A stretch of DNA of 64,000 nt from Candidatus Eiseniibacteriota bacterium (GCA_963725865.1 CAVSAC010000010.1:451736-515735); one strand, 5' to 3'; positions 19,240-58,168 are shown, numbered from the stretch's first letter. A program made the numbers and translations. The notes: generated by a model not told the origin, from the letters alone.

Positions 19240-20208
19240 TCAACGATAGAGCGACTTCACACGCCCCCACGTCATCGTCTCGGTCGGCGTGACCGGGTCG
19301 CCGAACTTCTCGACGCGGCTGTTGTTCCGGTCCGCCACGAAGATGTGACCGAACGTGTCCGTGGTGACCCCCAGCGGGATGTTGAATTCGTCGTCGTTGA
19401 GGCCGGGGACGCCCCACTTGACCAGGAACGTGCCCGCACTCGAGAACTCCTGGATGCGATTGTTGGACTGATCGCAGACATAGATGTTCCCGCCATTGTC
19501 CACGTGCGGAGCACCCGGGTTCTGAAACTGCCCGTCGCCCGTTCCGGCGGAGCCGAACGCGAACAGGAACGCCCCCGTCGGGGAGAAGACCTGGATCCGG
19601 TTGTTGACCATGTCCGCCACGACCACGTTGCCCGAGGTCGGGTCCACCGCGACGCCGTACGGGAACCGGAACTGCCCGGGGCCCGACCCGACAGTGCCCC
19701 ACTTCATGATGAACGTGCCGTCGTTCGCGAACTTCTGCACCCGGTGATTGAAGTAGTCGGTGACGTAGACGTCGCCCGTGGTCTGATCGACCGCCACTCC
19801 GGTCGCCTTGCGGAAGAGGCCGTTGCCCGTCCCGGTGCCGCCGAACGCGTTGAACGCGATTCCATCGGGACCCAGGACGTAGACCGCGTCGTCCACGCCG
19901 TCGGCGACGAAGACGTTGCCCGCAGCGTCGCAGGACAGCGCGGTCGGCTGGGTGATGTCGCCGTCCCCGCCGGACATGATGAACGCACCATTGGTGGAGA
20001 ACTGCTGAATGCGGGCGCCGCCGAAGTCACCGACCCAGAGCTCACCGGTCGGCGCGCGGGTGATCCCCTGCGCGAACTGGAACTGCCCGTCCGCGGCCCC
20101 CAGCGACCCCCAGGTGGAAATGAAGATCGGCGGTGTCACGGCACTGGCCAACGAAGCGATCATCAATGCGACTGCGGTCGCAATTCCAATTCGAGTGACC
20201 TTTTTCAT
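19240..20208 (-). CDS. Secreted NHL-repeat beta-propeller protein
   Basis: Signal peptide MKKVTRIGIATAVALMIASLASA. Repeated units follow (GQFQFAQGI..., GLFRKATGVAVD..., GQFRFPYGVAVD..., GQFQNPGAPHVD..., DEFNIPLGVTTD...). Local GC is noticeably lower than in the flanks. Confidence 0.65.
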   Translation of the reverse strand: MKKVTRIGIATAVALMIASLASAVTPPIFISTWGSLGAADGQFQFAQGITRAPTGELWVGDFGGARIQQFSTNGAFIMSGGDGDITQPTALSCDAAGNVFVADGVDDAVYVLGPDGIAFNAFGGTGTGNGLFRKATGVAVDQTTGDVYVTDYFNHRVQKFANDGTFIMKWGTVGSGPGQFRFPYGVAVDPTSGNVVVADMVNNRIQVFSPTGAFLFAFGSAGTGDGQFQNPGAPHVDNGGNIYVCDQSNNRIQEFSSAGTFLVKWGVPGLNDDEFNIPLGVTTDTFGHIFVADRNNSRVEKFGDPVTPTETMTWGRVKSLYR

Positions 20209-30535: not shown

Positions 30536-31456
30536 ATGGCCCCGCCCGCACCCCTGGATCCCGCTCCGCTCGCCCTGCTGCCCGCGGCACCCGCGGACGA
30601 CGTTCCCGCCGCGCCGTGGCGCGGACTCGACGCGCTCTGGATCCAGGTCGCGGGCACGCTGTGCAATCTTGCGTGCACGCACTGCTTCGTTGCGTGCGGC
30701 CCGGGCGACCTGCACCACGCGCTCATGAGCCGCGCGGAGGTCGCGGCGCGGGTGGCCGAGGGACTCTCACTCGGCGTCCGCGAGGTCTACCTGACCGGCG
30801 GCGAGCCGTTCCTGCACCACGACCTGCTCGACATCCTGGCCGATACGCTGGCGGTCGCGCCGTGCACCGTGCTCACCAACGGCACCCTGTTCACGGCCGC
30901 GCGGCTCGCGGCACTGCGGCAGCTCTCGGACGCCGCGGCGTACGCGCTCGAGCTGCGGGTGAGCCTGGACGGGGCGGACGCCGAGACGCACGACCGTTTC
31001 CGCGGCGCGGGCACGTTCGCGCGCACGCTCGCGGGACTGCGCGCCTGCGAGGCGCACGGCCTGCTGCCGATCGTGACGGTGACCCAGACCGAAGCGGAGG
31101 ACCCGCTGGCGTTCCGCGAGCGCGTCGTCGCCCAGCTGCGCGCCGCGGGGCTCGCGCGTCCGCGGTTGAAGGTCCTGCCGCTGTTCCGGCTCGGGCGCGA
31201 GCGCGCGCGCACGCGCGACTACGACGCCACCGAGACGCTCGCCGGCCTGCCCCCGGAGCAGTTCGACCCGACGCGGCTCCAGTGCACGAGCGGCCGCGCG
31301 GTCACCGCGCGCGGCGTCTACGTCTGCCCGCTGCTGGTCGACGCGCCCGCCGCGCGCATGGGCAACACGCTCGCCGCGGCGCAGCGGCCGTTCCCGCTCG
31401 CGTACGGCGCGTGCTTCACCTGCCACGTGACCGGCATGAGCTGCGGCAACGGATGA
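30536..31456 (+). CDS. Radical SAM enzyme with C-terminal SPASM/twitch-like Cys cluster
   Basis: CNLACTHCF (CxxxCxxC), a GGEPF glycine-rich SAM motif, and C-terminal CPLL...CFTCHVTGMSCGN cysteines. Confidence 0.65.
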   Translation: MAPPAPLDPAPLALLPAAPADDVPAAPWRGLDALWIQVAGTLCNLACTHCFVACGPGDLHHALMSRAEVAARVAEGLSLGVREVYLTGGEPFLHHDLLDILADTLAVAPCTVLTNGTLFTAARLAALRQLSDAAAYALELRVSLDGADAETHDRFRGAGTFARTLAGLRACEAHGLLPIVTVTQTEAEDPLAFRERVVAQLRAAGLARPRLKVLPLFRLGRERARTRDYDATETLAGLPPEQFDPTRLQCTSGRAVTARGVYVCPLLVDAPAARMGNTLAAAQRPFPLAYGACFTCHVTGMSCGNG

Positions 31457-32238
31457 GCGCCGTGCGGCTCGCGCTGTTCGGGGGCGTCTACAGCAACGAC
31501 CTCGCCCTCGCGGCCACGCTCGCGGACGTGGCGACGCGCGGCGCCGACGCGACCTGGTGCCTCGGAGATCTCGGCGGCTTCGGCCCGCATCCCGATCGCG
31601 CGGCCGCGCGGATGCGCGAGGCCGGGGTGCCGATGCTGCGCGGCAACTACGATGACTCGATCGGCCACGCGCGCGCCGACTGCGCGTGCGGCTACAGCGA
31701 CCCGCGCGACGAGCACTTCGCGCAGCGCTCCTACGACTACACCCTCGCGCGGACGGCCGAAGCGCATCGCGCGTGGATGCGCGGGCTGCCCGAGCAGCAC
31801 CGCTTCGTCGCCGGCGACCGGCGAGTGCTGCTGTGCCACGGCTCGCCGCGGCGCGTGAACGAGTTCCTGTGGGCGAGCACCTGCTCGGACGCGTTCCTCG
31901 AGCGGCTGTGCGACGAGCACGCGGCCGACGTGATCGCGTGCACGCACACCGGGCTCCACTGGCATCGGGCGCTGCCATCGGGCCGTCATGTGGTGAACGT
32001 GGGCGCGATCGGGCGCCCCGCGAACGACGGCGGCCCGCACGTGTGGTACGCGGTACTCGTGCTCAGTGCGGACGTGCGCGTGGAGTTCCGCCGCGTGGAC
32101 TACGACCACGAGGCGCTGGCGCGCGAGATGGAGTCCGAGGGCCTGCCCGACGAGTTCGTCGCCACCATCCGCAGCGGCTGGTGGACCACCTGCCTCGAGA
32201 ACCTGCCCGCCAAGGAGCGCCGCGCCGGGCGGTTCTAG
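31453..32238 (+). CDS. Metallophosphoesterase (calcineurin-like; YfcE/MJ0936-like)
   Basis: GDLGGFGP, GNYD, CHGSP and THTG metal-ligand motifs. Its ATG overlaps the radical SAM stop (ATGA). Internal start of track ORF 30433..32238. Confidence 0.65.
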   Translation: MSAVRLALFGGVYSNDLALAATLADVATRGADATWCLGDLGGFGPHPDRAAARMREAGVPMLRGNYDDSIGHARADCACGYSDPRDEHFAQRSYDYTLARTAEAHRAWMRGLPEQHRFVAGDRRVLLCHGSPRRVNEFLWASTCSDAFLERLCDEHAADVIACTHTGLHWHRALPSGRHVVNVGAIGRPANDGGPHVWYAVLVLSADVRVEFRRVDYDHEALAREMESEGLPDEFVATIRSGWWTTCLENLPAKERRAGRF

Positions 32239-32383
32239 CGGCCGCCCGCCCCCCCCGGCCTGCGGGGGTCGCGCCCGCATCCTCTCCTCAAGCCCGCCCC
32301 CGCCAAGGCCGATCACCTCGAGACGTCATCATCCGGGGGGGCCGCGTATGTCTCCCGGTCCGTCCCACCCCCACGGGAGGACC

Positions 32384-35300
32384 ATGGTCGGCTTCCGAGC
32401 CAAAGCGTTGCTGATCGCGAGCATCGCCCTCGGCGGCGCGCTGTCCGCGGCGGCCGCCCCGGCGGGGTCCGGCTCCGCCGCGGGCCGGCCTGCGGGTGCC
32501 ACGCTGCTCGGCTCGATCGACGTGAGCGCCTCGCAGACGGGCCGCACGCTGCGCCCCGGCGACGCGCGGGTGCCGGTGTACGTGCTGGCGATGACGTACA
32601 ACGCCCTGCTGGTGGGCTCGGAGACAGTCACCGAGATCGCGTTCGAGAACCGGACCGCCGGCCCCGGCAACACGGCGCAGAAGGACACCGAGTGGCAGTC
32701 GCTCGCGCTCTCGTGGAGCCGCAGGGCCGCCGACGCGCTCAGTCCGGCGAGTGCCACCCGCGCCGCCGCCTGGACGGGCGGCACGGTGCGCTTCACGGGG
32801 CTCAACATCCCGTTCGGCATCGGCGACTCGGCGTACGTCGTCGTCTGGGGGGCACCCTCGCTCGCCGCACGTGACGCGGACGCGCTCGATCTCCGTATCC
32901 CGTCCACCGGATCGATCCTCACCGGAGGCGGCTCGTCGGTGAACGTGACGAACGGCAGCACGCTGGATCCGGCCGCGAGCTTCCCGGTGGACGGCATGTC
33001 CGCCGCGCAGGTCATGCTGAGCCCGGTGCTCACGCCGTACTTCCCGATCGGCGCCGCCGGACAGCTCGCGCTCGCGGTGCGCGTCCCGCCCAACGGCTAC
33101 GCGGCGGACCGCCTCGAGCGACTCGAGTTCGTCAACCTGGGCACCGCCGCGGTCCACTCCGACATCGCCGCGCTCGATGCGTGGATCGACGACGGCGACG
33201 GGATCTACGAACCCGGTCAGGAGGCGTGGCTCGGCGCTCCGGCGTTCACGGGCACCAGCTGGGTGCTCGGGCTGGCGAGCCCGATCGACCTCCCGCTGCC
33301 CACGGGCGCGTGGATCTACCTGACCGTCGACGTCTCCGAGCAGGCGAAGGAGGGCGCCACCGTCCAGCTCGCGCTCCCGGGCGGTTCCGCCGGCACGCAG
33401 GCGTTCACCGTGACGAGCGGCAATGACGGTCCGAACGACCGCGCGATCGCCAATCCGGCCCAGAGCGTGATCAGCCTGGTCGACCGCGTCGTGGTCTCGC
33501 CCATCCCGCTGCCCTCGGGATTCGCGCGGCCGGGCGAGGCGCGCGTGCCGCTGTTCGCGATGACGGCGACCAACGTCTACACCGACGCGCGCGCGCTGAC
33601 CGGCCTCGTGCTCACGCACGCCACGTCCGGGCCCGGCACCGCCGCCGAGCGCGACGCCGAGATCCAGCGCGTCGAGCTGCGGCTGGACGGGAACTCCGAC
33701 GGCGTGCTCGGAGACTTCGTCAGCGACCCGGTGCTCGCCACCGCGGTGTTCGCGAACGGGCGCGCCAGCTTCTCCGGATTCTCGGTCTCCCTCGCGCCGG
33801 GCGCCAAGCGCTCCCTGTTCGTGACCGGCGACGTCTCGCTCCTCCACGCCGCCGACGGCGACCCGCTCGCGGCGACCGTCGGCACGCGCGAGGACCTCGC
33901 GTTCGACCGCAGCACCACGCTGTCGGGCTCCTTCCCGCTCTCCTCGGCGAACGCCTGGACGGTCGACGGCATGATCGCGGCCCAGGTGGGCAACGCCGGC
34001 GCGCCGCCGCAGACGCTCGCGCCGAACGACGGCCCGCGCGAGGCGCTCGATCTGCTGGTGCACGGCAATGGCTACCAGGACGACGTCCTCCAGCGGCTCT
34101 CGGTGACCAACCTCGGCACCGCCGGCACCACGGACCTCGCCGAGGTGCGGCTGTGGCGCGACGGGGGTGACGGGGCGTTCAACGCGGGCGCGGGCGACGA
34201 CGCCGACCTCGGAGCGATGGCCGCGGGAGCGGACACGTGGGACAGCGGAGCGCTGGCGGTCGCGCTGGGCCCGGCCGGGACCCGTCTGTTCGTCTCCGTG
34301 AGCGCCGGCGGCGCGCCGGCCGACTCCGCCACCGTGCGCCTCGCGGTGCCGGTGAAGGGCATCGCCGTGGCGTCCGGGAACGACGGCCCGGTCGACGTGC
34401 CCGTCGCCAATCCGGACGCGCTGCTGCTCGCCAACCGCGGCCTGCTCGCGAGCCTCGCGTTCGACGCCGCGGCGGTGACCGCGGGCCAGACCGTCACACT
34501 CACGATGACGGTGCGCAGCACCGCGTCGGAGTCCCTCCTCGCGGTGACTCCGAGCGCACCGGCGCTCGCCGGCAGCGCCCGGCTCGGCCCGCTGTCCGGA
34601 CCGAGCCCCGCGAGCCGCGCGCTGGCACCGGGCGCCAGCGGCGCGTTCGCCTGGACGTACTCCGCCGACAGCGCGGGCACGGTCCACGCCATCGCGAACG
34701 CCGCGGGCACCGGCGCCTCGAGCGGGCAGCCGGTGTCGTCGCTCGACACCCGGTCGGGCGCGCTTCGCGTGTTCGCGCGTGCCGACAGTCTCCCGCTGCA
34801 GGTCTTCGACGCCATGCCGCAGTCGGTGACCCGCGGCCAGCGCGGCGTGCTGCCGCTCTACCTGACGTTCGTCCATCCCGATCCCGACGGCAGCCCGGTG
34901 AAGGTGACGGGATTCACCGTGCGGCTCGAACGCGAGGATGGCTCGGACGTGGCGCCGGCCTCGCTGCTCGCGCGCGCCGTGGTGCTCGCCGCCTCCGAGA
35001 CGCTGCTCACCCGCTCCACGCTCGAGACCAGCGGCGCGGACCTGGATCTGGCGCTGGCGATCCCCGCCATCGTGGCGGGATCGGATCCCACCACCCTGGT
35101 GCTGGCGCTCGACGTCGCCGATTCCACCGTGGTGCCCGACTTCCGCATCGTGATCGCCGCGGCGAGCCGGGTGCGCGCCGAGGACGGCGCGACCGGTGCT
35201 CCCGTCACGATCCGGCTCCAGTCGCCGACCTGGCCGGTGCGCAGCGGGCTCGCCCGCGTCCAGGCCGGCGCCACCCAGCTCGAAGTCGCGGCGGCGCCGC

Positions 35301-37051
35301 TGCCGCCGGTGCGCGCGAGCCGCGGCCAGACCGAGGTGCCGCTCGGCACGTTCACGCTGTGGAGCCCGGGGGTGGGCGGCGTCACCACCGACGTGCGGGT
35401 CGGAGCGCTCGATCTCAAGCTCGCCGACACGCTCGGGGCGCGGATCGACCGGCCCGGCCGCATCGTGCGCCGGCTGCGCCTGCGCAGCGGCACGCAGCTG
35501 CTGGCCGACCGGCTGGTCGCCGCCGGCGCCGACAGCGTGCTGGCGCTCACGCTCTCGCCGCTGCTCGCGGTGCCGGTGAACACTCCGACCGAGATGCGGC
35601 TCACCGCCGAGCTCTCCGACACCGCCTCGCTGGGACCGTTCCGGCTCGAGCTCGGGGACAGCGCGCGCTTCGACGCCCGCGATCCCAACACCGGCAACCG
35701 GGTGCCCATCCGGTTCGCGAGCCCGCCGCTGCACGGCCCCGCGGTGCTGGTGGAGGAGCGTGCGGATTCGGCGTGGGTGCTGGGCGTGCCGGAGCTGCCC
35801 GCGGAGGTCGGGCTGGGCGCGCGCGGGGTGACGGCGCTCTCGGTGCGCCTGAGGCACCCGGGTGGTGCGCGCACCGGCCGGCTGCGAGTCGACTCGCTGG
35901 TCGTGCGCTGCGTCGACGCCTCGGGCACGGGCTTGGCGCCGGCGCCCTACCTCGACCGGCTGCAGGTGCTGTGGAACGGAGCGCTCGCCGCAACGGTCTC
36001 CGATCCACCCGCCACCGGCAGCACGCTGCTCGCGATGCTGCCCGGCTTCACGCTCGAGAGCGGCGACAGCGCGCGCGTGACGTTCGTGCTGGACTTCGAG
36101 TCCGCCGCCCCGACCACCACCTTCGCACTCGAGCTGGGCGCCGCGGGGCTCGACATCGACGACGCCAACCTCGACCTGCCGGCGCTGCCGGTGGTGGAGA
36201 ACGACGGGGAGTTCCCACTGCGCTCGGGCGTGGCGCGTCTGGTGGCGCCCTCGCGCCTGGTCCAGGTGGACCTCGACGACGCGATGCCCGCGGTGCTCGC
36301 GCCCGACGGCCAGCTGCGGACGGCGGGTGTCGTGCGGCTGACGAACGGCGCGGCGCCGGGCTCGGGCCCGGTGCGGATCTCCTATCTCGCGGTGCGCGCC
36401 CGCGGCGCCGCCGGCGACGTGCCGCTCGGCGGCGAGGTCTGGCGCGTGCAGCTGACCCGGGACGGCGTGCTGTTCGCGAGCGGCGCGGCGCTCACCTCCG
36501 ACTCGCTCACGTCCGTGGTCTCGTTCCCCACCGAGCTGCAGCTCGAGCCCGGGGTGCCCGTGGATCTGACGCTGCGCTTCGCGACCCGCCCGGGGCCCGC
36601 GCTGGCCTCGTTCGCGCTCGCGCTCGAGGCGGCCGACATCGGCGTGGTGCAGCCGGGCAGTCCGCTGCTCGACGTCTCGGTGCTGCCGACTCCGGGGCGC
36701 ACCTTCCCGCTCGCGACCTCGGTCGGCAGCTATGCCGCCGCGTCGCTGGCCGGGAGCTGGTCGAGCTTCCCGAATCCGTTCGTGCCCGAGCAGGGCGGCA
36801 CCACGTTCGCCTACTACCTGCCGGCGGCGGGGCGCGTTTCGCTCGCGATCTGGACCGCGCGCGGCGAGCGCGTCGCCACGTTGCTCGACGGCGAGGCGCG
36901 CGCGGCGGGACTCCACCAGAGCGACGTCTGGAACGGCCGCAACGGGCGCGGCGCGCTGGTGCAGCCGGGCGTGTACGTGGCCGAGCTGACGGTGCGGCTC
37001 GACGACGGCCGCTCCGAGCAGCTGCGACGCAAGGTGGCGGTGGTCCGGTGA
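32384..37051 (+). CDS. Giant (~1555 aa) secreted repeat protein with C-terminal FlgD-Ig-like / T9SS-type sorting domain
   Basis: GGGAGG RBS then ATG MVGFRAKALLIASIALGGALSAAAA, a signal peptide. Two ~330-aa tandem repeats each end in ...TSGNDGP. A distinct C-terminal half follows. The C-terminus ...SFPNPFVPEQGGTTFAYYLPAAGRVSLAIWTARGERVATL... is T9SS-CTD-like. Confidence 0.6.
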   Translation: MVGFRAKALLIASIALGGALSAAAAPAGSGSAAGRPAGATLLGSIDVSASQTGRTLRPGDARVPVYVLAMTYNALLVGSETVTEIAFENRTAGPGNTAQKDTEWQSLALSWSRRAADALSPASATRAAAWTGGTVRFTGLNIPFGIGDSAYVVVWGAPSLAARDADALDLRIPSTGSILTGGGSSVNVTNGSTLDPAASFPVDGMSAAQVMLSPVLTPYFPIGAAGQLALAVRVPPNGYAADRLERLEFVNLGTAAVHSDIAALDAWIDDGDGIYEPGQEAWLGAPAFTGTSWVLGLASPIDLPLPTGAWIYLTVDVSEQAKEGATVQLALPGGSAGTQAFTVTSGNDGPNDRAIANPAQSVISLVDRVVVSPIPLPSGFARPGEARVPLFAMTATNVYTDARALTGLVLTHATSGPGTAAERDAEIQRVELRLDGNSDGVLGDFVSDPVLATAVFANGRASFSGFSVSLAPGAKRSLFVTGDVSLLHAADGDPLAATVGTREDLAFDRSTTLSGSFPLSSANAWTVDGMIAAQVGNAGAPPQTLAPNDGPREALDLLVHGNGYQDDVLQRLSVTNLGTAGTTDLAEVRLWRDGGDGAFNAGAGDDADLGAMAAGADTWDSGALAVALGPAGTRLFVSVSAGGAPADSATVRLAVPVKGIAVASGNDGPVDVPVANPDALLLANRGLLASLAFDAAAVTAGQTVTLTMTVRSTASESLLAVTPSAPALAGSARLGPLSGPSPASRALAPGASGAFAWTYSADSAGTVHAIANAAGTGASSGQPVSSLDTRSGALRVFARADSLPLQVFDAMPQSVTRGQRGVLPLYLTFVHPDPDGSPVKVTGFTVRLEREDGSDVAPASLLARAVVLAASETLLTRSTLETSGADLDLALAIPAIVAGSDPTTLVLALDVADSTVVPDFRIVIAAASRVRAEDGATGAPVTIRLQSPTWPVRSGLARVQAGATQLEVAAAPLPPVRASRGQTEVPLGTFTLWSPGVGGVTTDVRVGALDLKLADTLGARIDRPGRIVRRLRLRSGTQLLADRLVAAGADSVLALTLSPLLAVPVNTPTEMRLTAELSDTASLGPFRLELGDSARFDARDPNTGNRVPIRFASPPLHGPAVLVEERADSAWVLGVPELPAEVGLGARGVTALSVRLRHPGGARTGRLRVDSLVVRCVDASGTGLAPAPYLDRLQVLWNGALAATVSDPPATGSTLLAMLPGFTLESGDSARVTFVLDFESAAPTTTFALELGAAGLDIDDANLDLPALPVVENDGEFPLRSGVARLVAPSRLVQVDLDDAMPAVLAPDGQLRTAGVVRLTNGAAPGSGPVRISYLAVRARGAAGDVPLGGEVWRVQLTRDGVLFASGAALTSDSLTSVVSFPTELQLEPGVPVDLTLRFATRPGPALASFALALEAADIGVVQPGSPLLDVSVLPTPGRTFPLATSVGSYAAASLAGSWSSFPNPFVPEQGGTTFAYYLPAAGRVSLAIWTARGERVATLLDGEARAAGLHQSDVWNGRNGRGALVQPGVYVAELTVRLDDGRSEQLRRKVAVVR

Positions 37052-39087
37052 GCGCCCCGACCGCGACCCGTCGCCGCGTCGCCCTGGCCCGCGCGGCATG
37101 CGTGCTGGCGCTGGTGTCCTGCGCCGCGGGCCACTCGCGGGCCGCCGACGACGCGGGCACCCGGTCGGTGTTCGCGACCGGCGCCGGCAACCGCGCCCTC
37201 GCGCTCGGATCCGCGTTCTGCGCGCTGGCCGACGACGCCTCGGCGCTGCTCTGGAACCCGGGCGGACTCGGCGGCGTGGAGCGCGCGGAGTTCCAGGTCG
37301 GCGAGGCGAGCCTCAACGACCTCGGCTTCCGCGAGACGTTCGTGGGCTACGTCCATCCCGACTGGCGCTGGGGCACCGCCGCACTCGCGGTGCGGCACTA
37401 CGGCGTGGACGGGATCGACGGCCGCGACGCGCGCAACCTGCCGACCGGCGAGTTCGGGGACCGCGAGACCGAGTTGGCGCTCGGCTACGGCCGGGCGCTG
37501 GGCGAGGCCTTCCGCGTCGGCCTCGCGGGGCGCGTGCGGCGACAGGATCTGGCGGGCCGCTCCGGCATGGGCGTGGGGGCCGATGCCGGGGTCGAGTTCC
37601 GGCCCGGCGCGGTGTTCGACTCCGAGGCGGGCTGGATGCGCGACCTGCAGGTGGGCGTGGCGCTGCAGAACCTGATCGAGCCCTCGATCCGGCTGGACCG
37701 CGCGAGCGTGCCCGATCCCCTCACGCTGCGCGCCGGGCTGTCGATCGCGCGTCCGCTCGCGCTGGGCGGCGTGATCGCGAGCGTCGAGCTCGAGCAGGTG
37801 CGCGACGTGGGCGCGCGCGCCCACGCCGGGATCGAGTGGAACGCGCATCCGCTGCTGTCGCTGCGCAGCGGCCTGGACGACGGCGTGCTGACCGCAGGCT
37901 TGGGCATTCGACTCGGCTCGAGCGCGTTCGAGTACGCGTTCGCCGATCCCGCCACCGGTCCCACCCATCGCGCCGGACTGACATGGCGCTTCGGCCGCTC
38001 GGTGACCGACGCGCGGCAGTTCGCGGAGCGTGCCGAGGAGGAGCGCGTGCAGCAGCGGCTGGTGGCGCTCGAGCGCGAGCGCGAGCGCGATCGCGTCGCG
38101 AACCTGATGGCCGGCGCCGAGGCGGCGCGCGCCGCCGGGCGCTCGGAGGAGGCGCTCGAGGCGCTCGCCACGCTGCTCGCGATCGATTCGACGTTCGCGC
38201 CGGCGCGCGCGCTGCGGGTGGCGAGTCTGGGCGACCGCGCGCGCGCGCTCGAGTCCGCGGGCGACTGGGCCGAGGCGTCGGTGGCGTGGGCGCGCGCGCT
38301 CGGCGAGGCCCCCGGGGACACCACCGCCGCCGCGGGTCTCGCCCGCACCCGCGCCGAGAGCGATCTGCGAGCCGTGCGCTCGGCGGAGATCCGCAAGGCC
38401 TTCGCCGCCGCGCTGGACGCGTTCGCGGCCGACGACCTGGCGGGCGCGCGCGCGGGCCTCGCCCGCATCCTCGCGCAGAACCCGGGCGACGGCGAGGTGC
38501 AGGCGATGCTGAGGCGCGTGGAGGCGGCGATCGGACGGCGGACCGAGGCGTGGCTGCGGCAGGCGGACGCCCTGCGGCAGGCCGGCTCGCTCGACGAGGC
38601 CGCCGCCCTGATCGAGCGCGCGCGCAGCCTCGACCCGCGCACGCCCGGACTCGCGGCGGCGACCGGCGCGCTCGCGCGCGCCGCGGCGCCGGGCACTCCG
38701 CCGCGCGCGAGCGCGCCGGCCCGGACCGCGCGGCCCGCGGCACCGGCCGCCCCGGCGGTCCTCTCGCACGAATCGGAGCGCCAGGTCGCGGAACTCTATC
38801 GGCGCGGCCTCGACGCCCTCCAGCACGGCCAGTCGGACGACGCGCTGCGCGCGCTCGAGCAGGTGCGCGCGCTGCGCCCGGGCTACGCGCGCGTGGACGA
38901 GGTGCTCAAGCGCGAGTACCTGACGCGCGGCATGGAGCTGTTCTCGACCGGGCGCCTGGACGCCGCGGTGCGGATGTGGGAGAGCGCGCTCCGGGTGGAT
39001 CCGCACGATCCGCGCGCGCTCGGGTACCTGGCGCGCGCGCACGAGCAGCTGGCGCGCTCGCGCGAGATCTCGCAGGACGAGCCATGA
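37048..39087 (+). CDS. PorV/PorP(SprF)-like outer-membrane beta-barrel fused to a C-terminal coiled-coil/TPR domain
   Basis: GTG overlapping the upstream stop (GTGA). Signal peptide is present. The N-terminus ...FATGAGNRALALGSAFCALADDASALLWNPGGLG matches the PorV/PorP N-terminal signature. The barrel ends ~aa 350 with ...AGLTWRFGRS. About 330 aa of Ala/Arg/Glu-rich TPR-like repeats follow. Confidence 0.55.
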   Translation: MSAPTATRRRVALARAACVLALVSCAAGHSRAADDAGTRSVFATGAGNRALALGSAFCALADDASALLWNPGGLGGVERAEFQVGEASLNDLGFRETFVGYVHPDWRWGTAALAVRHYGVDGIDGRDARNLPTGEFGDRETELALGYGRALGEAFRVGLAGRVRRQDLAGRSGMGVGADAGVEFRPGAVFDSEAGWMRDLQVGVALQNLIEPSIRLDRASVPDPLTLRAGLSIARPLALGGVIASVELEQVRDVGARAHAGIEWNAHPLLSLRSGLDDGVLTAGLGIRLGSSAFEYAFADPATGPTHRAGLTWRFGRSVTDARQFAERAEEERVQQRLVALERERERDRVANLMAGAEAARAAGRSEEALEALATLLAIDSTFAPARALRVASLGDRARALESAGDWAEASVAWARALGEAPGDTTAAAGLARTRAESDLRAVRSAEIRKAFAAALDAFAADDLAGARAGLARILAQNPGDGEVQAMLRRVEAAIGRRTEAWLRQADALRQAGSLDEAAALIERARSLDPRTPGLAAATGALARAAAPGTPPRASAPARTARPAAPAAPAVLSHESERQVAELYRRGLDALQHGQSDDALRALEQVRALRPGYARVDEVLKREYLTRGMELFSTGRLDAAVRMWESALRVDPHDPRALGYLARAHEQLARSREISQDEP

Positions 39088-41147
39088 GCGCCCGCGCCCG
39101 CATCAGCATGCGCGTGGTGGTGATCTCGGCGACGGTGGCGATCGTGGCCGCGGCGGTGCTGTGCGTCGGAGCGGTCGCCGAACGCAACACGCGGCAGGCC
39201 CTCACCCGCGAGGCGCAGGCGCGACTGCTGCTGGAGGCCCGCAACCTCGCGCTCACCGGGGCCGGCGCGCTGCTGAGCGAGCTGCCCGAGCTCACGCTCT
39301 GCCCGGTGGTGCGCGAGCTCACCGAGTCGCGGCCCGAGCTGGCGTTCGCGGTGGTGCTCGATCACCGCGGCGTGGTCCAGGGCCACCGCGACGCGCGCGC
39401 CCTGGGGGGCACGTGGCGCCTGCCCGCAGGGCTCGCGCCGGTCGCCACCACCGCCCGCCTGCGCGCGGGCGAGGCGCTGCTCGGCGATCCCGACCTGCTG
39501 GTGGCCTCGGTGCCCGTGGCCAGCGCCGCCGGGCAGCGGCTGGGCCTCGCGGTGGTCGGCCTGCGCCGCGCCTACGTCGAGCAGACCGTCGCCGCCGCGC
39601 GGCGACAGCAGCTGCTGCTGGTCGCGCTGGTGCTGGCGGCGGGGAGCGTGCTCGCGTTCCTGCTGCTGACCGCGCTGCTGCGTCCCATCGGGGCGCTGCG
39701 CGCGGGCCTCGAGCGCATCGGGCGCGGCGACCTCGATGCCCCGATCGCGCTCCGCAGCGGGACCGAGCTGGGACTGCTCGCCGACGCGGTCGACGACATG
39801 GCGGCCCGCCTCAAGGTCGCGCGGCACGAGATGGTCGAGAAGGAACGGCTGGCGCGCGACGTCGAGCTGGCGCGTCAGATCCAGGAGCACCTGCTGCCGG
39901 CCGGCTCCCGCACGGTCGGCGACTTCACGCTGTGCGGCTCGCACCGCGCCGCGGCCGAGGTCGGCGGCGACTACTTCGATCTGCTCCCGCTCGCGGACGG
40001 ACGCTGGGCGGTCGCGATCGCCGATGTCTCCGGCAAGGGGCTGGGCGGCTGCCTGGTGATGTCGATGGTGTCCGCGCTGCTGCGGGCGCTGCGCGCCGAG
40101 CATCACTCGCCGGCCGCGCTGCTCGCGGCACTCGAGGAGCAGCTCGCTCCCACCCTGACCCCCGGCACCTTCGTGACGATGTTCTACGGCACCCTCGACC
40201 CGGCGAGCGGCACGCTTCAGTACGCCTCGGCCGGCCACTCCCCGCTGCTGGTGTGGCGCGCGGCCGCGGCCCAGGTCGAGTGGCACCCCACGCGCGGCAT
40301 CCCGATCGGCGCGGTGCGCGGCGGAGTGCTGCGCGGCACGCTGGAGGATCGCACCGTGACGCTGGAGCCCGGCGACCTGCTGTTCCAGTTCACCGACGGC
40401 GCCAGCGAGGCCACCGACCCGGCCGAGCGGGAGTTCGGCTTCGACGGCATCGAACGCGTCGTGATCGAGCACGCCGCCCGCGGTGCCGAGGCGGTGGTCG
40501 CGGCACTCGGCGACGCGCTCGCGCGGTGGTCCGGCGGCGGGGCGCCGGCCGACGACCAGACCCTGCTCGCGGTGGCGCGCGCCGCGCCGCTCGCCGGCGC
40601 GATCCCGGCGCGAGCCCCGCTCGCGGCCGCCGACCCGCTCGCGCTGCTCGAGCACGCGCGCGCGCGCGGCCATCGACTGGAGCTCGCTCCGCGGCTCGCG
40701 GCGCTCGAGGCGCTGGGCCCGTGGATCGCCGGCCTCCCCGACGTCGGCGCGCTCGACGCGGACGCGCGCCTGGTCATCGAGTCGGCGCTCCACGAGCTGT
40801 GCGCCAACGTGGTGGAGCACGGATCGGCGCCGGGCGCCGAGGCGCCGCTCGAGCTCTGGTGGCTCCCGGCCATCGATCCGGCCGGCGGAACCGCCGAGCG
40901 CGTGCGGGCCGGGTGCTTCGTGCTCCGCGACCGCGGCTTCCCGTTCCGCCCCGAGCGGCGCCATCCGTTCGATCCCGCGCACCACGAGGCGTGGCGTCGC
41001 GGGCGTGGTCTGGGGCTCGAGCTGATCCACCGCGCGCTGAGCGAAGTGGTCTTCCGGCCGGGGACGGCCGCCGGCAATCTCACGCTGCTGGCGTTCGATC
41101 CCGGACGCGCCGTTGTCCAACCCGAGGAGCGACGACATGGCGGATGA
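39084..41147 (+). CDS. Membrane sensor: TM + HAMP + PP2C (SpoIIE/RsbU-type) phosphatase fused to HATPase_c (RsbW-like Ser kinase)
   Basis: Its ATG overlaps the upstream stop (ATGA). Two TM helices flank a periplasmic region. HAMP (…LRPIGALRAGLERIGRGDLDAPI…), PP2C motifs (GGDYFDL, ADVSGKG, QFTDGASEA), and a C-terminal LVIESALHELCANVVEHG H-box/N-box. Confidence 0.75.
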   Translation: MSARARISMRVVVISATVAIVAAAVLCVGAVAERNTRQALTREAQARLLLEARNLALTGAGALLSELPELTLCPVVRELTESRPELAFAVVLDHRGVVQGHRDARALGGTWRLPAGLAPVATTARLRAGEALLGDPDLLVASVPVASAAGQRLGLAVVGLRRAYVEQTVAAARRQQLLLVALVLAAGSVLAFLLLTALLRPIGALRAGLERIGRGDLDAPIALRSGTELGLLADAVDDMAARLKVARHEMVEKERLARDVELARQIQEHLLPAGSRTVGDFTLCGSHRAAAEVGGDYFDLLPLADGRWAVAIADVSGKGLGGCLVMSMVSALLRALRAEHHSPAALLAALEEQLAPTLTPGTFVTMFYGTLDPASGTLQYASAGHSPLLVWRAAAAQVEWHPTRGIPIGAVRGGVLRGTLEDRTVTLEPGDLLFQFTDGASEATDPAEREFGFDGIERVVIEHAARGAEAVVAALGDALARWSGGGAPADDQTLLAVARAAPLAGAIPARAPLAAADPLALLEHARARGHRLELAPRLAALEALGPWIAGLPDVGALDADARLVIESALHELCANVVEHGSAPGAEAPLELWWLPAIDPAGGTAERVRAGCFVLRDRGFPFRPERRHPFDPAHHEAWRRGRGLGLELIHRALSEVVFRPGTAAGNLTLLAFDPGRAVVQPEERRHGG

Positions 41148-41487
41148 CTTCGAGATCGAGATCGATCGCAGCCACCCACCGGCCACCGTGGTGCGCGTGC
41201 GCGGCCGCGTCGATGGCCGCACCGCCCCGCGCCTGCTGCGCGAGAGCCTGGCGGCTCGCCGCGCGGGTGCGCTGCTGCTGCTGAACCTCGCCGAGGTGCG
41301 TTTCATCTCCTCGGCCGGAGTCGGCGCGCTCATGGTGCTGGCCGAGACGCTCGGCAAGGAAGGTGGCGGACTGCGGCTGGCTCCGGTGTCGGGCGCGGTG
41401 CGGACCGTGCTCGGCCTGCTCAACCTGGACCAGTTCCTCAGGATCGGCGAGACCGAGGACGAAGCGCTCGGCCGGCTGGGCAGCTGA
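41137..41487 (+). CDS. STAS-domain anti-sigma-factor antagonist (RsbV/SpoIIAA-like)
   Basis: MADDFEIEIDRSHPPATVVRVRGRVDGRTAPRL...LNLAEVRFISSAGVGALM, a STAS fold with the phosphorylatable Ser in the FISSAG motif. GAGGAG RBS. Overlaps the upstream gene by 11 nt. Confidence 0.7.
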   Translation: MADDFEIEIDRSHPPATVVRVRGRVDGRTAPRLLRESLAARRAGALLLLNLAEVRFISSAGVGALMVLAETLGKEGGGLRLAPVSGAVRTVLGLLNLDQFLRIGETEDEALGRLGS

Positions 41488-41488
41488 C

Positions 41489-42820
41489 ATGGGCGAGCCC
41501 GCACGCGATCGCACTCCAGGCCGCGGCCGGCGCCCGCGGCCGCCGCGGCTGACGCCGCTCCCGCCGGGACCGCGCGAGTTGCCGGACGCGCGGCTGGCGG
41601 AGCGGCGCGAGAACTCGCTGATGGCACTGTTCGAGCTGAGTCACGAACTCGATCTGTCGCGCGACCCGTTCGCGATGGGCGAGCTCGCGCTCCTCAATCT
41701 GCTGGGACACTTCGGGACGCCGCGCGCCGCGGTGTGGGGCTTCCCCGCGGACGATCCCGACGCGGCCGTGCCGCTGGCGGCCTTCGGGCTGCCGGAGGGC
41801 GAGGCGGCCGCACTCGGACCGCGGCTGCGGCAGGCGCCCGAGCCGGCGGGCGCGGCCGACGGCGAACCGAAGGAGCTCGAGCTGCCGGCCGCGGCGCGAC
41901 AGGCGGGATTCGCGGCAGTGGTGCCGATCCTCGCGCGCGATCGGCGCATCGGCGTGCTGGCGCTCGGCGCGCGGGTGGGCGGCGAGCCCTACCGGAGCCT
42001 CGACCTCGACCACCTGCGGACCGCGGCGCGCATGCTGGGCGCGGCGCTCGAGAACGCCCGCCTCCAGCAGCACACCGCCGAAGTCAACCGCCGGCTGCGC
42101 CGCGCGAACGAGGAGCTCACCCAGGCCGACCACCTCAAGGCGCAGTTCGTCCAGAACGTGAACCACGAGATGCGCACGCCACTCGCGGTGCTGCAGGGCT
42201 ACCTCGAGATCCTGGCGGACGCCGAGGGCGCGAGCGAGCTCCAGATGCGCGCGTGCGAGGCGATGCTGGTGCAGATCGAGCGGCTGACGCGCATGGTGCG
42301 GGACCTGCTCGAATACTCCGCGCTCTCCGACGGGGCCGGACGCGCGACGCTCGAACCGGTGGCTTTGCCGGCCGCGCTCGAGCGCTACGCCGCCGAGCGC
42401 CGCCCCGGCGTGCTCGCGGGGCTGCGCACGCTCGAGACGCGGATCGAGGAACCCCTGCCGGCCGCGCTGGCCGATCCCCGCCGTCTCGAGCGCACGCTCG
42501 ACGCGCTGGTCGACAACGCGATGCGCTTCACCCCGCCCGGCACCCGGATCGTGATCCGCGCCGCCGTGCTCCAGCGCGCGGACGAGCGCTGGCTGGGGAT
42601 CGAGGTCGTGGACGACGGTCCGGGGATCGAGCCGGACCGTCTCGAGCGGCTGTTCGACGCGTTCCGCCAGGGGGACGGCTCGAGCACCCGCACCGTCGGT
42701 GGCCTCGGCCTCGGGCTCGCGCTGGCGCGCGAGCAGGCGGCCAGCATGGAAGGCGGGCTGGAGGCCGAGAGCACGCCCGGTCGGGGGGCCACGTTCCGAC
42801 TGCTGCTGCGGCCGGCGTGA
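41489..42820 (+). CDS. GAF-domain sensor histidine kinase (HisKA + HATPase_c), no adjacent response regulator
   Basis: VNHEMRTPLAVLQGYLEIL H-box and DDGPGI...GGLGLGLAL G-boxes. N-terminal GAF-like region. Its ATG is 1 nt after the STAS gene stop. Confidence 0.8.
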   Translation: MGEPARDRTPGRGRRPRPPRLTPLPPGPRELPDARLAERRENSLMALFELSHELDLSRDPFAMGELALLNLLGHFGTPRAAVWGFPADDPDAAVPLAAFGLPEGEAAALGPRLRQAPEPAGAADGEPKELELPAAARQAGFAAVVPILARDRRIGVLALGARVGGEPYRSLDLDHLRTAARMLGAALENARLQQHTAEVNRRLRRANEELTQADHLKAQFVQNVNHEMRTPLAVLQGYLEILADAEGASELQMRACEAMLVQIERLTRMVRDLLEYSALSDGAGRATLEPVALPAALERYAAERRPGVLAGLRTLETRIEEPLPAALADPRRLERTLDALVDNAMRFTPPGTRIVIRAAVLQRADERWLGIEVVDDGPGIEPDRLERLFDAFRQGDGSSTRTVGGLGLGLALAREQAASMEGGLEAESTPGRGATFRLLLRPA

Positions 42821-42826
42821 TCCGCG

Positions 42827-42848
42827 GGCGCGCGTGGTACCGCGCGCC
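42827..42848. terminator. Bidirectional GC hairpin between the convergent HK and rarA genes
   Basis: GGCGCGCG-TGGTAC-CGCGCGCC is a perfect 8-bp stem. Confidence 0.4.
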
Positions 42849-42850
42849 GC

Positions 42851-44212
42851 TCAGCGCGACTCGCCGCCGGCCTCGCCGCCCGCGGTGCCTTCTTGCGCGC
42901 GCTTCGCCAGCAGGGCCTCCCACGCCCGCATGCGGCGCGCGATCTCGGCCTCGTGCCCGTGAGTCGTCGGCTCGTAGAAGCGCCGGCCCACCAGCTCGTC
43001 CGGCAGGTGCTGCTGGTCGGCGATGCCGCCGGCCTCGTCGTGCGCGTAGCGGTAGCCGGCGCCGTAGCCGAGCTCCTTCATCAGGCGCGTGGGCGCGTTG
43101 CGGATCACCAGCGGCGGCGCCAGCGAGCCGCTCTCCTCGACCTCGGCCTGCGCCTTGCCCAGGCCCAGGTACACGGCGTTGCTCTTGGCCGCGGTCGCCA
43201 GGTAGGCGCAGCATTGGGCGATCGCCAGCTCGCCCTCGGGGGTGCCGAGCTGGTGATAGGCCTGGAACGCGGCCACCGCGATCACCAGCGCCTGGGGGTC
43301 GGCGTTGCCCACGTCCTCGCTCGCGAAGCGCACCAGCCGGCGCGCGACGTACAGCGGATCCTCGCCGGCGGCGAACATGCGCGCCAGCCAGTAGAGCCCG
43401 GCGTGCGGGTCGGAGTCGCGCAGCGACTTGTGGAGCGCCGAGATCAGGTTGTAGTGCTCCTCGCCCGCGCGGTCGTAACGCAGGTGGCGGCGCGCGAGCG
43501 CCTGGCGCGCGCTGTCGAGCGTGATGCGCCCCTGCACCGCCGCGGCCGCCGCCAGCTCGAGCGCCCCGAGCGCGCGCCGCGCGTCGCCGTCGCCGGCGTT
43601 CGCCAGCAGGTCGAGCGCCTCGGGATCGGCGGTGAGCGAGCCGCCGATGCCGCGCTCGGGGTCGGCGAGCGCGCGCTCCAGCAGCGTGCGCAGGTCGGCG
43701 GGCGCGAGATCCTTCAGCACCACCACGCGGGCGCGCGAGAGCAGCGCCGCATTCACCTCGAAGGAGGGGTTCTCGGTGGTGGCGCCGATCAGCACGATGT
43801 CGCCCTTCTCGACGTGCGAGAGGAACGCGTCCTGCTGAGCCTTGTTGAAGCGGTGGATCTCGTCCACGAACAGCAGCGTCGGCCGGCCCGAGCGGCGGCG
43901 CTCGAGCACCGCGCGCTCCATGGTCTCGCGCACCTCCTTCACGCCCGAGAGCACGGCGCTGAACTGCACGAACCGCACGCCGGCGGTCTGCGCGAGCAGG
44001 CGCGCGATGGTGGTCTTGCCGGTGCCCGGCGGACCCCACAGCACGACGGAGGCGAGGTGCTTGCCGTCGCGCATGAGCGCGAGCGGCGAGCCCGGCGCGA
44101 ACAGGTGCTCCTGCCCGACCAGCTCGTCGAACGTCCGCGGGCGCATGCGGTCGGCGAGCGGGCTGCGGCTCGCGGACTCAGGCGCTACACCGCCGAACAG
44201 GTCCTCGCTCAT
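42851..44212 (-). CDS. rarA: Replication-associated recombination protein A (RarA/MgsA AAA+ ATPase)
   Basis: MSEDLFGG...[16 protein letters not shown]...[15 protein letters not shown]...[18 protein letters not shown]. Internal ATG of track ORF 42851..45040. Its ATG overlaps the cbiO stop. Confidence 0.85.
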
Positions 44213-53187: not shown

Positions 53188-54378
<1,191 letters not shown>

Positions 54379-57430: not shown

Positions 57431-58168
57431 ATGCGCAGGATCGGAGCGGGAATCGTGCTGGCCGCACTCGTGGTGAGCCTCGGGGGATGCTTCAACCCGT
57501 TCTCGCCCCGGATCGCGACCGGGGTCGGGATCTCGGAGCCCAAGCCCGCGCCGCTCACGCCGGTCGGTGTGATCCAGCTCTTCCAGTGGTGCTACCGCAA
57601 CCGCGCGCTGGCGGAGTACAAGGAGCTCTTCACCGACGACTACGTGTTCACCTTCTCGGCGCTCGACCCCGAGGGCAACCCGTATCGCGAGCACCCCTAC
57701 CGCCGCGAGGAGGAACTGGCGTCGGCCGAGCACCTGTTCGTCACCGGCAACGCCACCGAGGAGGCGGCCTCCAGCATCACGCTCGACTTCACCAACACGC
57801 TGGTCGCCGTGCCCGACACGCGGCCAGGCAAGCGCGACCGGTGGCATCGCCAGTTGAACGTCGGCGTCGTGCTGGTGGTGCGCCGGCCGTCGAGCCAGCT
57901 CGAGGTGAAGGGCGAGGCGCGGTTCTTCGTGGTGCGCGGGGATACCGCGATCATCCCGCCGGAGCTGGGCCTGCGGCGCGACTCCACGCGCTGGTACATC
58001 GAGGGCTGGGAGGACTACACGGTGCAGAATAGCCCGGGTGCGGCGCGCCTGCTGCCCGCGGGGGCCGTGACGCGGGCGCCCCGGGCGGTCCGCCCGGCGA
58101 CGGTGACTTCCGATCCATTCGACGTCATCGACGTCACGTTCGGCGCGCTGAAGGCCCTGTACCGTTAG
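57431..58168 (+). CDS. Hypothetical lipoprotein, distant paralog of the preceding one
   Basis: MRRIGAGIVLAALVVSLGGCF is a signal peptide with lipobox. Internal start of track ORF 56516..58168. Confidence 0.5.
   Translation: MRRIGAGIVLAALVVSLGGCFNPFSPRIATGVGISEPKPAPLTPVGVIQLFQWCYRNRALAEYKELFTDDYVFTFSALDPEGNPYREHPYRREEELASAEHLFVTGNATEEAASSITLDFTNTLVAVPDTRPGKRDRWHRQLNVGVVLVVRRPSSQLEVKGEARFFVVRGDTAIIPPELGLRRDSTRWYIEGWEDYTVQNSPGAARLLPAGAVTRAPRAVRPATVTSDPFDVIDVTFGALKALYR

Follow-up and report, generated by a model that had tools for sequence, protein, structure and literature searches.

Partner switches are textbook regulators of sigma factors, and a few are known to act on other targets. In chlamydiae, RsbU sits in the membrane, with its sensor domain in the periplasm and HAMP and PP2C domains in the cytoplasm. 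HAMP-linked PPM phosphatases are controlled via coiled-coil linkers, and their sensor modules are exchangeable among phosphatases, kinases, and cyclases (PMC12143880). Among STAS proteins with partners other than a sigma factor, HsbA acts with HsbD and FlgM (PMC6482189), CheS binds the kinase CheA (PMC12654446), and the target of SypA is still unknown (PMC8256260). Here, we describe a five-gene unit that contains a switch of this general type, located in a 64,000-nucleotide stretch of DNA from Candidatus Eiseniibacteriota bacterium (GCA_963725865.1, CAVSAC010000010.1:451736-515735), which is referred to below as the window. The first-pass annotation of the window had drawn attention to a phosphatase and a kinase combined in a single polypeptide. 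The polypeptide is real, but its design is already known from HsbR, CrsR, SypE, and Rv1364c, and what is new is its context.

The unit encodes, in order, a giant secreted protein, a PorV-like barrel protein with a TPR region, a bifunctional membrane sensor, a STAS protein, and a soluble GAF histidine kinase. We lean, with some reserve, toward a model in which the sensor determines whether the STAS protein is phosphorylated and the neighboring GAF kinase is in turn controlled by that protein. Every biochemical step of this model, the direction in which regulation runs, and the kind of input are inferred from sequence comparison. Comparative genomics here names a concrete candidate target for a partner switch, a histidine kinase; if this is true, partner switching of the Ser/Thr type would be linked to two-component signaling. 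The unit also ties the switch to giant surface proteins and PorV-like proteins in phyla about which almost nothing is known.

Sensor, STAS protein, and histidine kinase

The last three genes of the unit follow one another in the window and have the following features.

39084-41147, plus strand: bifunctional membrane sensor, 687 amino acids (Pfam, hydropathy, alignment, fold match)
Sensor residues 5-34: first transmembrane segment, strongly hydrophobic (hydropathy)
39189-39602, residues 36-173: sCache_3_2 domain, periplasmic, between the two transmembrane segments (Pfam, E = 6.8e-12)
Sensor residues 174-207: second transmembrane segment, strongly hydrophobic (hydropathy)
39669-39815, residues 196-244: HAMP domain (Pfam, E = 2.7e-11)
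39996-40577, residues 305-498: SpoIIE/PP2C domain, preceded by a helical linker (PF07228, E = 6.4e-44)
40695-41087, residues 538-668: RsbW-like GHKL serine kinase domain (HATPase_c_2, PF13581, E = 1.7e-9, 38.2 bits against a cut-off of 27.4)
41137-41487, plus strand: single-domain STAS protein, 116 amino acids (Pfam PF01740, E = 2.4e-14)
41311-41313: predicted phosphorylation site Ser59 of the STAS protein, aligned with Ser58 of SpoIIAA
41489-42820, plus strand: soluble GAF-HisKA-HATPase_c histidine kinase, 443 amino acids, alternative start at 41621 (Pfam)
41708-42049: GAF domain of the kinase (Pfam, E = 3.9e-5)
42137-42328: HisKA domain of the kinase (Pfam, E = 5.6e-16)
42164-42166: His226 of the kinase, in the motif HEMRTP
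42473-42811: HATPase_c domain of the kinase (Pfam, E = 1.5e-25)

The domain matches of all three genes are far above chance. Two transmembrane segments, a HAMP domain, a PP2C domain, and an RsbW-type kinase domain had been described in the 687-residue protein by the first-pass annotation, and Pfam and hydropathy recovered each of them; the periplasmic sCache_3_2 domain had been missed. The N terminus runs transmembrane segment-sCache-transmembrane segment-HAMP, and no Response_reg match was found in the sensor with Pfam. The sensor-family profile also matches the periplasmic domain of DcuS in the PDB. In an alignment of 18 sensor orthologues at 47 to 75% identity (alignment A1), the sCache domain contains a QGHxDxR motif in which H101 and R105 are invariant and D103 is nearly so. 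The full four-domain architecture recurs in hundreds of orthologues within that same range of identity.

Residues expected of both catalytic activities are conserved in alignment A1. The metal-binding Asp residues of the PP2C domain (D296, D299, D314, D438, D490, and D491) are invariant, as are E571, N575, H579, and G580 of the kinase N box, within the motif ELCANVVEHG (residues 571 to 580), and R641-G642-x-G644 of the G2 box. In the G1 box (D616-x-G618), D616 and G618 are kept in at least 90% of the orthologues, and the second Gly of this box is replaced by Pro in the window sensor. An HATPase domain lacking these boxes had been named in advance as evidence against the first-pass reading; all three boxes are retained in the alignment, and a kinase-domain profile lines them up with those of Bacillus subtilis SpoIIAB (hhalign E = 2.5e-4, probability 43%). 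An AlphaFold2 model of the sensor built on alignment A1 had a mean predicted local distance difference test (pLDDT) score of 83.9, and its best Foldseek match in the PDB was 3KE6, the RsbU and RsbW domains of Rv1364c (415 columns, E = 4e-19), which bears out the analogy with Rv1364c drawn earlier. The next matches, to the PP2C part, were Pseudomonas aeruginosa RssB, SiaA-PP2C, SpoIIE, and RsbX. A phmmer search of the RsbW-like domain alone against PDB sequences returned no match. Despite this null result, we regard the RsbW-like domain as confirmed, because Pfam, motif conservation, hhalign, and Foldseek agree.

SiaA was considered as an identity for the sensor and rejected, the best NCBIfam match (NF038263) reaching only 48.3 bits against a cut-off of 700. 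Genes like SiaB, SiaC, and SiaD are absent from the five-gene unit, in which the partner of the sensor is the STAS protein.

The STAS antagonist was correctly placed directly after the sensor, whose 3' end its gene overlaps by 11 nucleotides. Its match to TIGR00377 falls just below the cut-off (53.2 against 53.45 bits). Ser59, the phosphorylatable residue, is shared by 49 of 49 orthologues that align properly, both free and fused to a kinase (see below), and the STAS protein is the predicted substrate of the kinase and the phosphatase of the sensor. All parts of a kinase/phosphatase/STAS cycle appear, by domain content and residue conservation, to be present and conserved. The GAF kinase has no transmembrane segment by hydropathy, and it combines an H-box dimerization domain with an HATPase_c catalytic domain, as kinases of the HisKA class do.

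In the model that we favor, a signal reaching the cytoplasm would pass through the HAMP domain and the helical linker to the PP2C domain. The RsbW-like kinase would place a phosphate on Ser59 of the STAS protein, to be removed again by the PP2C domain. Since one chain holds both the Ser59 kinase and the PP2C phosphatase, the sensor would set the phosphorylation state of the STAS protein.

The position after the STAS gene in related loci

The five genes are tightly packed and translationally coupled, judging from their junctions. The GTG start of the PorV-like gene overlaps the stop codon of the giant-protein gene (GTGA), the stop codon of the PorV-like gene overlaps the sensor ATG (ATGA), and the kinase ATG at 41489 lies 1 nucleotide past the stop codon of the STAS gene, which itself shares 11 nucleotides with the sensor gene. 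All five genes are unbroken, and each can be matched to its orthologues over its full length. We compared the window with related loci, labeled here by L-numbers (L003, L101, and so on). The order giant protein, TPR/barrel protein, sensor, STAS protein, kinase is common to four annotated neighborhoods (Eisenbacteria, Latescibacterota, and two other metagenome-assembled genomes [MAGs]), among which the flanking genes are unrelated, and tblastn searches found the five-gene arrangement in 13 further genome loci. Synteny of the unit extends over Eisenbacteria, Latescibacterota, Krumholzibacteria, and related MAGs. An orthologue of the giant gene lies upstream in every related locus with upstream DNA, and the PorV/TPR gene always lies between it and the sensor.

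A sample was also drawn from the PorV/TPR side of the unit. Metagenome contigs were searched with an alignment of the PorV/TPR protein (alignment A2), and the resulting 79 loci were classified by the gene after PorV/TPR. With the exception of one lineage (L112 and L113), this gene starts with sCache-HAMP wherever enough DNA follows. About 41 informative nonredundant loci carry the sensor class with PP2C and RsbW-like kinase domains, and in about 12 loci or lineages an HD-GYP domain is fused straight to the HAMP domain (HD_5, E = 1e-37 to 1e-38). Neither a STAS gene nor an adjacent kinase was found in any of the approximately 12 HD-GYP-sensor loci. In about 32 of the 41 informative PP2C-kinase loci, a GAF kinase, separate or fused, adjoins the STAS protein. 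The arrangements found are as follows.

STAS, then GAF kinase: about 25 loci, including the window
GAF kinase, then STAS, in a single frame with no stop codon: 6 to 7 loci
STAS, then a different PAS kinase: 2 loci
STAS, DUF3369-HD-GYP protein, second STAS: 1 locus (L010)
STAS, then unrelated genes: 6 loci (L008, L011, L102, L121, L153, and L132)
HD-GYP sensor: L017 (9899-11458), L031 (7864-9357), L106, L107, L111, L116, L123, L125, and L129-L131

Two side observations concern these loci. In L112 (7908-10648) and L113, a GNAT-like gene on the opposite strand follows the giant and PorV/TPR genes in place of the sensor, and L003 has a second STAS gene after its kinase.

In-frame fusions of the kinase to the STAS protein occur in one clade. 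A protein search with the L101 fusion as the query found at least 35 database clusters (90% identity) of kinase-STAS fusions, 526 to 574 amino acids in length (34 of them 538 to 574). All of these combine HisKA, HATPase_c, and STAS domains, and a GAF match is on record for about 16. One example is TMQ67358.1, annotated only as "anti-sigma factor antagonist." A word-based protein search with the window kinase as the query returned no fusion proteins. Because at least 35 clusters of called fusion proteins exist, the in-frame arrangement is not an artefact of open reading frame (ORF) reading. The fusions retain the phosphorylatable Ser, and the sensors of the fusion clade retain their PP2C and kinase domains. 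In a rough neighbor-joining tree of sensor N-terminal halves, the fusion clade is monophyletic, while the HD-GYP sensors are basal or paraphyletic and L010 branches beside them. These natural fusions are proteins that can be tested directly in vitro.

The HD-GYP loci amount to a natural output-swap experiment, in which a PP2C-kinase sensor with its STAS protein and kinase can be set against an HD-GYP sensor. The HD-GYP form of the sensor would hydrolyze cyclic di-GMP (c-di-GMP) directly. Locus L010 (12033-13988) combines a PP2C-kinase sensor and a STAS protein with a 413-amino-acid, GAF-like DUF3369-HD-GYP protein in the slot otherwise held by the kinase, followed by the second STAS protein. 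Given these HD-GYP swaps and the DUF3369-HD-GYP protein of L010, the slot after the STAS gene appears to act as an effector position. The conserved core of the unit is formed by the Cache-HAMP sensor together with the giant and PorV-like/TPR proteins, and its output is modular. Because the output is modular, because an effector position follows the STAS gene, and because kinase-STAS fusions exist, the kinase is the best candidate for the target of the switch. That the GAF kinase might be the regulated target had been offered as a guess in the first-pass annotation; synteny and the kinase-STAS fusion clade now lend the proposal what we consider strong comparative support.

Under this proposal, the STAS protein would be a regulatory subunit of the soluble GAF kinase encoded immediately downstream. 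In one phosphorylation state it would remain on the RsbW-like domain, and in the other it would bind or release the kinase and thereby alter its autophosphorylation or choice of partner. The kinase would in turn signal to receiver proteins encoded elsewhere in the genome.

It might be argued that the kinase is an unrelated neighbor whose adjacency has no functional meaning, and the six lineages without a kinase beside the STAS gene could be cited to that effect. We find this hard to credit. The synteny extends over several candidate phyla with different flanks, the two genes are 1 nucleotide apart, and the in-frame fusions in particular strongly disfavor such an explanation.

A different relationship between the STAS protein and the kinase is easier to entertain, although we consider it distinctly unlikely. 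The STAS protein may be a phosphorylation-controlled tether that docks the soluble GAF kinase on the sensor, serving as a scaffold and not as a catalytic regulator; the Cache-HAMP protein would then be the missing input domain of the kinase, or the kinase would act on the sensor. Docking would fit with a kinase that is soluble and lacks its own membrane sensor, with the classical binding of unphosphorylated STAS proteins to their RsbW-type kinase, and with kinase-STAS fusions, which would bring the kinase to the RsbW-like domain. The comparative evidence is nevertheless the same as for control of the kinase by the STAS protein, with only the mechanism differing, so that the present data cannot separate the two, and the free STAS protein of most lineages would need a second interface, with the kinase, in either case.

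Sigma factors, receivers, and the envelope side of the unit

We asked whether the switch might instead act on a sigma factor. About 58 genes were called in the window (65 to 78% guanine-plus-cytosine [GC] content) from GC content by codon position, and 46 of these were scanned with Pfam, the remainder being recognizable ccm, pdx, mre, rodA, and PBP2 genes. Among these 46, none had a match to a sigma factor, an anti-sigma factor, or a receiver domain. All ORFs of at least 70 amino acids in the window and in about 100 related loci (1.1 Mb) were further searched by phmmer with RpoE, SigB, SigF, FliA, and CheY probe sequences entered by hand. No SigB/F/FliA-type sigma factor was recovered from the window or the related loci; the window gave no match at all, and the sole sigma match, in 1 of about 60 loci, was an extracytoplasmic function (ECF)-type gene that L016 carries at a distance of 2.8 kb from the unit. 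Nor does the precomputed Pfam annotation of the four related neighborhoods contain a sigma factor. The statement of the first-pass annotation that no sigma factor is nearby thus holds. Its conclusion that the output is therefore not a sigma factor does not follow, because the closest characterized fusions, HsbR and CrsR, sequester RpoS (PMC6482189).

Classical anti-sigma logic would have the RsbW-like domain sequester a remotely encoded sigma factor, to be freed by the dephosphorylated STAS protein, with the kinase belonging to a separate, coregulated pathway. HsbR and CrsR, which bind RpoS, are the same PP2C-kinase fusion and likewise have a STAS gene next to them (PMC6482189); the sensor described here keeps an intact RsbW-like domain; and the DNA inspected covers 64 kb of a contig that is at least 1.16 Mb long. 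Such an arrangement would, however, leave the kinase-STAS fusions and the HD-GYP substitutions unexplained, and the searches above found no SigB/F/FliA-like sigma factor in any of the approximately 60 related neighborhoods. A sigma factor held at the membrane is possible, yet it explains nothing of the synteny. On this evidence, we consider a remote sigma factor an unlikely target.

The CheY probe and the Pfam scans also found no response regulator or REC domain for the GAF kinase within the 64-kb window. Relatives differ in this respect: the L005 kinase is a BarA-like hybrid kinase, and in one subclade a PAS-HisKA (AtoS/NtrB-like) kinase and one or two single-domain receivers lie directly downstream of the unit, joined in L101 and L138 by a GAF-AAA+ sigma-54 activator. 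This extended downstream cluster is found at the following loci.

L101, 13783-17912
L100, L133, L136, L138, L145, L146, and L155

The description of the kinase as an orphan therefore fits the local arrangement in this genome and not the family, in which hybrid kinases or receivers occur.

The first two genes of the unit place the switch in an envelope context.

32348-37051, plus strand: giant secreted protein, 1567 amino acids, first gene of the unit (gene call based on GC content at third codon positions)
37048-39087, plus strand: PorV/PorQ-family-like outer-membrane barrel with a helical/TPR C-terminal region (NCBIfam, TPR families)

The giant protein has a signal-like hydrophobic segment at its N terminus (residues 18 to 39, hydropathy). 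As a whole it matched no Pfam or NCBIfam family. Its last 99 residues match FlgD_ig (E = 7.8e-5, 23 bits, under the cut-off of 27), and its last 149 residues align weakly with the C-terminal end of the PorU model (E = 1.5e-4). In the PorV-like protein, the barrel occupies approximately residues 35 to 320 and the TPR/helical part about 350 residues. The protein matches the PorV family NF033709 at E = 2.1e-22, with 80.1 bits that fall below the cut-off of 90, and TPR families match its C-terminal region down to E = 7e-17. In alignment A2, the barrel is conserved and the C-terminal TPR region highly so.

Given these genes, the sensor, STAS protein, and kinase may be viewed as the cytoplasmic output end of a five-gene envelope-signaling unit. 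A periplasmic signal would be read by the inner-membrane protein through its DcuS-like single-Cache domain, and this signal may come from a small ligand, or it may reflect the state of the giant surface protein and PorV-like/TPR partner encoded alongside. A small-ligand input is suggested by the DcuS-like Cache domain with its invariant H101 and R105 and near-invariant D103, while input from the co-encoded envelope proteins is suggested by the precedents of SprB-SprF and PorA-PorY. The first-pass annotation had called the switch self-contained; this description does not stand, as the switch is the output end of a conserved five-gene unit and its PP2C-kinase part is interchangeable with HD-GYP. 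One may go further and propose that a giant type IX secretion system (T9SS)-type protein and its PorV-like/TPR partner report to the Cache-HAMP sensor, that the STAS protein, free or fused, is a regulatory subunit of the kinase, and that serine phosphorylation of the STAS protein is a new gate on two-component signaling, interchangeable with c-di-GMP hydrolysis by HD-GYP. Taken as a whole, this combined proposal is possible but tentative, and we would not bet on all of it being right.

A switch that is near-obligately linked to giant and PorV/TPR genes might also govern the envelope genes of its own operon, with the STAS protein influencing how the giant protein is secreted, anchored, or turned over, or else acting on a remote c-di-GMP enzyme, and with the kinase providing independent input or feedback. 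The HD-GYP variants point to c-di-GMP, a usual regulator of surface adhesins, and both SypA and the HenR-associated STAS protein of Anabaena act on polysaccharide or envelope functions (PMC8256260, PMC13555669). This seems very improbable to us, since the giant and PorV-like proteins belong to the envelope and the STAS protein and kinase to the cytoplasm, the kinase-STAS fusion ties the STAS protein physically to the kinase, and the unit contains no candidate cytoplasmic secretion component.

Several points weigh against control of the kinase by the STAS protein as we have proposed it. The case rests on comparisons among uncultured organisms, in which adjacency and fusion indicate a functional link but not its direction or mechanism, and fusing the two proteins could just as well be a means of docking the kinase on the sensor. 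Like CrsR and HsbR, the sensor could still use its RsbW-like domain to bind a sigma factor from another part of the genome. Since six lineages have the sensor and the STAS protein with no adjoining kinase and two have a different PAS kinase after the STAS gene, the kinase is not an obligatory neighbor. A BLASTP comparison of the kinase GAF region with the DUF3369 region of the HD-GYP protein in L010 showed no significant similarity, and no common docking domain is therefore demonstrated. The SpoIIAB match is modest, at an hhalign probability of 43% and with a SpoIIAB sequence entered by hand, and the T9SS-type assignments of both upstream genes fall under curated cut-offs.

The remaining observations concern the surroundings of the unit. 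A convergent rarA gene begins 30 nucleotides beyond the kinase stop codon, and the intervening gap holds a perfect GC-rich inverted repeat (GCGCGCG-TGGTAC-CGCGCGC, 42828-42847) that may form a hairpin lacking a T tract and act as a bidirectional terminator. A scan of 31400-43200 for sigma-70 promoter and intrinsic terminator consensus sequences reported none, this repeat included, which is uninformative at 75% GC in a nonmodel genome. The idea that the unit is a defense or mobile element found no support, its flanks being housekeeping genes (rarA, an ECF transporter, aroE, and mre and ccm genes). The mreB gene (53188-54228, minus strand) is broken by two or three frameshifts within approximately 53450-53640, such that its N-terminal, middle, and C-terminal thirds each lie in a different frame; these breaks are either indel errors of a long-read assembly or the mark of a pseudogene, and they call for caution over other short ORFs in the window. 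FlgD_ig-type C-terminal domains occur on several secreted proteins, namely those encoded at 5055-5999 (plus strand, E = 6e-12) and 32348-37051 (plus strand) in the window and others in L084 and L085, and their recurrence would fit a T9SS-like sorting system in these phyla. A common C-terminal motif ends two otherwise unrelated proteins, MTWGRVKSLYR in an NHL-repeat protein (19240-20163, minus strand) and VTFGALKALYR in the product of 57431-58168 (plus strand), each directly before the stop codon, and may be a sorting or anchoring tag.

Comparison with known systems

The closest described counterparts on the cytoplasmic side are HsbR-HsbA of P. aeruginosa and CrsR-CrsA of Shewanella oneidensis, in which a single chain holds a PP2C domain and, after it, an RsbW-type kinase/anti-sigma domain, and the cognate STAS protein, encoded by the adjacent gene, is acted on by both activities (PMC6482189). 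They take their input through a cytoplasmic receiver fed by a phosphorelay, whereas the protein described here has a membrane sCache-HAMP input. Their partners are RpoS, FlgM, and the cyclase HsbD, whereas the neighbor here is a GAF kinase that is sometimes fused to the STAS protein, and they are proteobacterial, whereas the present family is found in Eisenbacteria and related candidate phyla. The best profile and fold match, covering PP2C and RsbW over 415 columns, is Rv1364c of Mycobacterium tuberculosis (PDB 3KE6). Unlike the sensor, however, Rv1364c is cytoplasmic, with an N-terminal PAS domain and a STAS domain on its own chain (PMC12143880); here there is no PAS domain, the input is periplasmic, and the STAS protein is separate or fused to the kinase. 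In the chlamydial RsbU-RsbV-RsbW system, as here, a sensor phosphatase, a kinase/anti-sigma factor, and anti-anti-sigma STAS proteins form the switch (PMC11619594), but RsbW is a separate protein there, with neither a histidine kinase nor a giant-protein context.

Other systems resemble the unit in the target of the switch. SypE of Vibrio fischeri also combines opposing serine kinase and PP2C activities in one protein that acts on a STAS protein, SypA, whose target is not a sigma factor (PMC8256260, PMC12826045). Its order is kinase-REC-PP2C, and it is cytoplasmic and belongs to a polysaccharide locus; in the protein described here, the PP2C domain precedes the kinase and there is no REC domain. 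The closest parallel for a STAS-only protein acting on a histidine kinase is CheS-CheA of Sinorhizobium meliloti, in which CheS binds CheA and alters its interaction with response regulators (PMC12654446, citing Dogra 2012). No kinase/phosphatase pair is known for CheS, however, and CheA is of the chemotaxis class and not of the HisKA class. Stressosome (RsbRST) modules likewise place STAS/RsbT switches upstream of c-di-GMP enzymes or HisKA/REC phosphorelays instead of a sigma factor (PMC9237108), but no RsbR/RsbS/RsbT complex is present here, only one membrane protein and one STAS protein.

On the envelope side, the adjacency of the giant and PorV-like genes recalls SprB-SprF of the T9SS, in which the gene for a giant cargo adjoins that for a dedicated FadL-type 14-strand barrel (PMC9143113), and the possible relation of cargo to sensor recalls PorA-PorY, in which the C-terminal domain of a cargo is the periplasmic ligand of an inner-membrane sensor kinase (PMC12152298). 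The barrel here differs from those of T9SS pairs in its long TPR extension, and its assignment, like that of the C-terminal domain, is below cut-off. Unlike PorY, the inner-membrane sensor is a Cache-HAMP-PP2C-kinase protein and not a histidine kinase. What the window adds to these systems is a membrane Cache-HAMP version of the HsbR/Rv1364c-type bifunctional switch, set in a previously undescribed five-gene unit of uncultured phyla.

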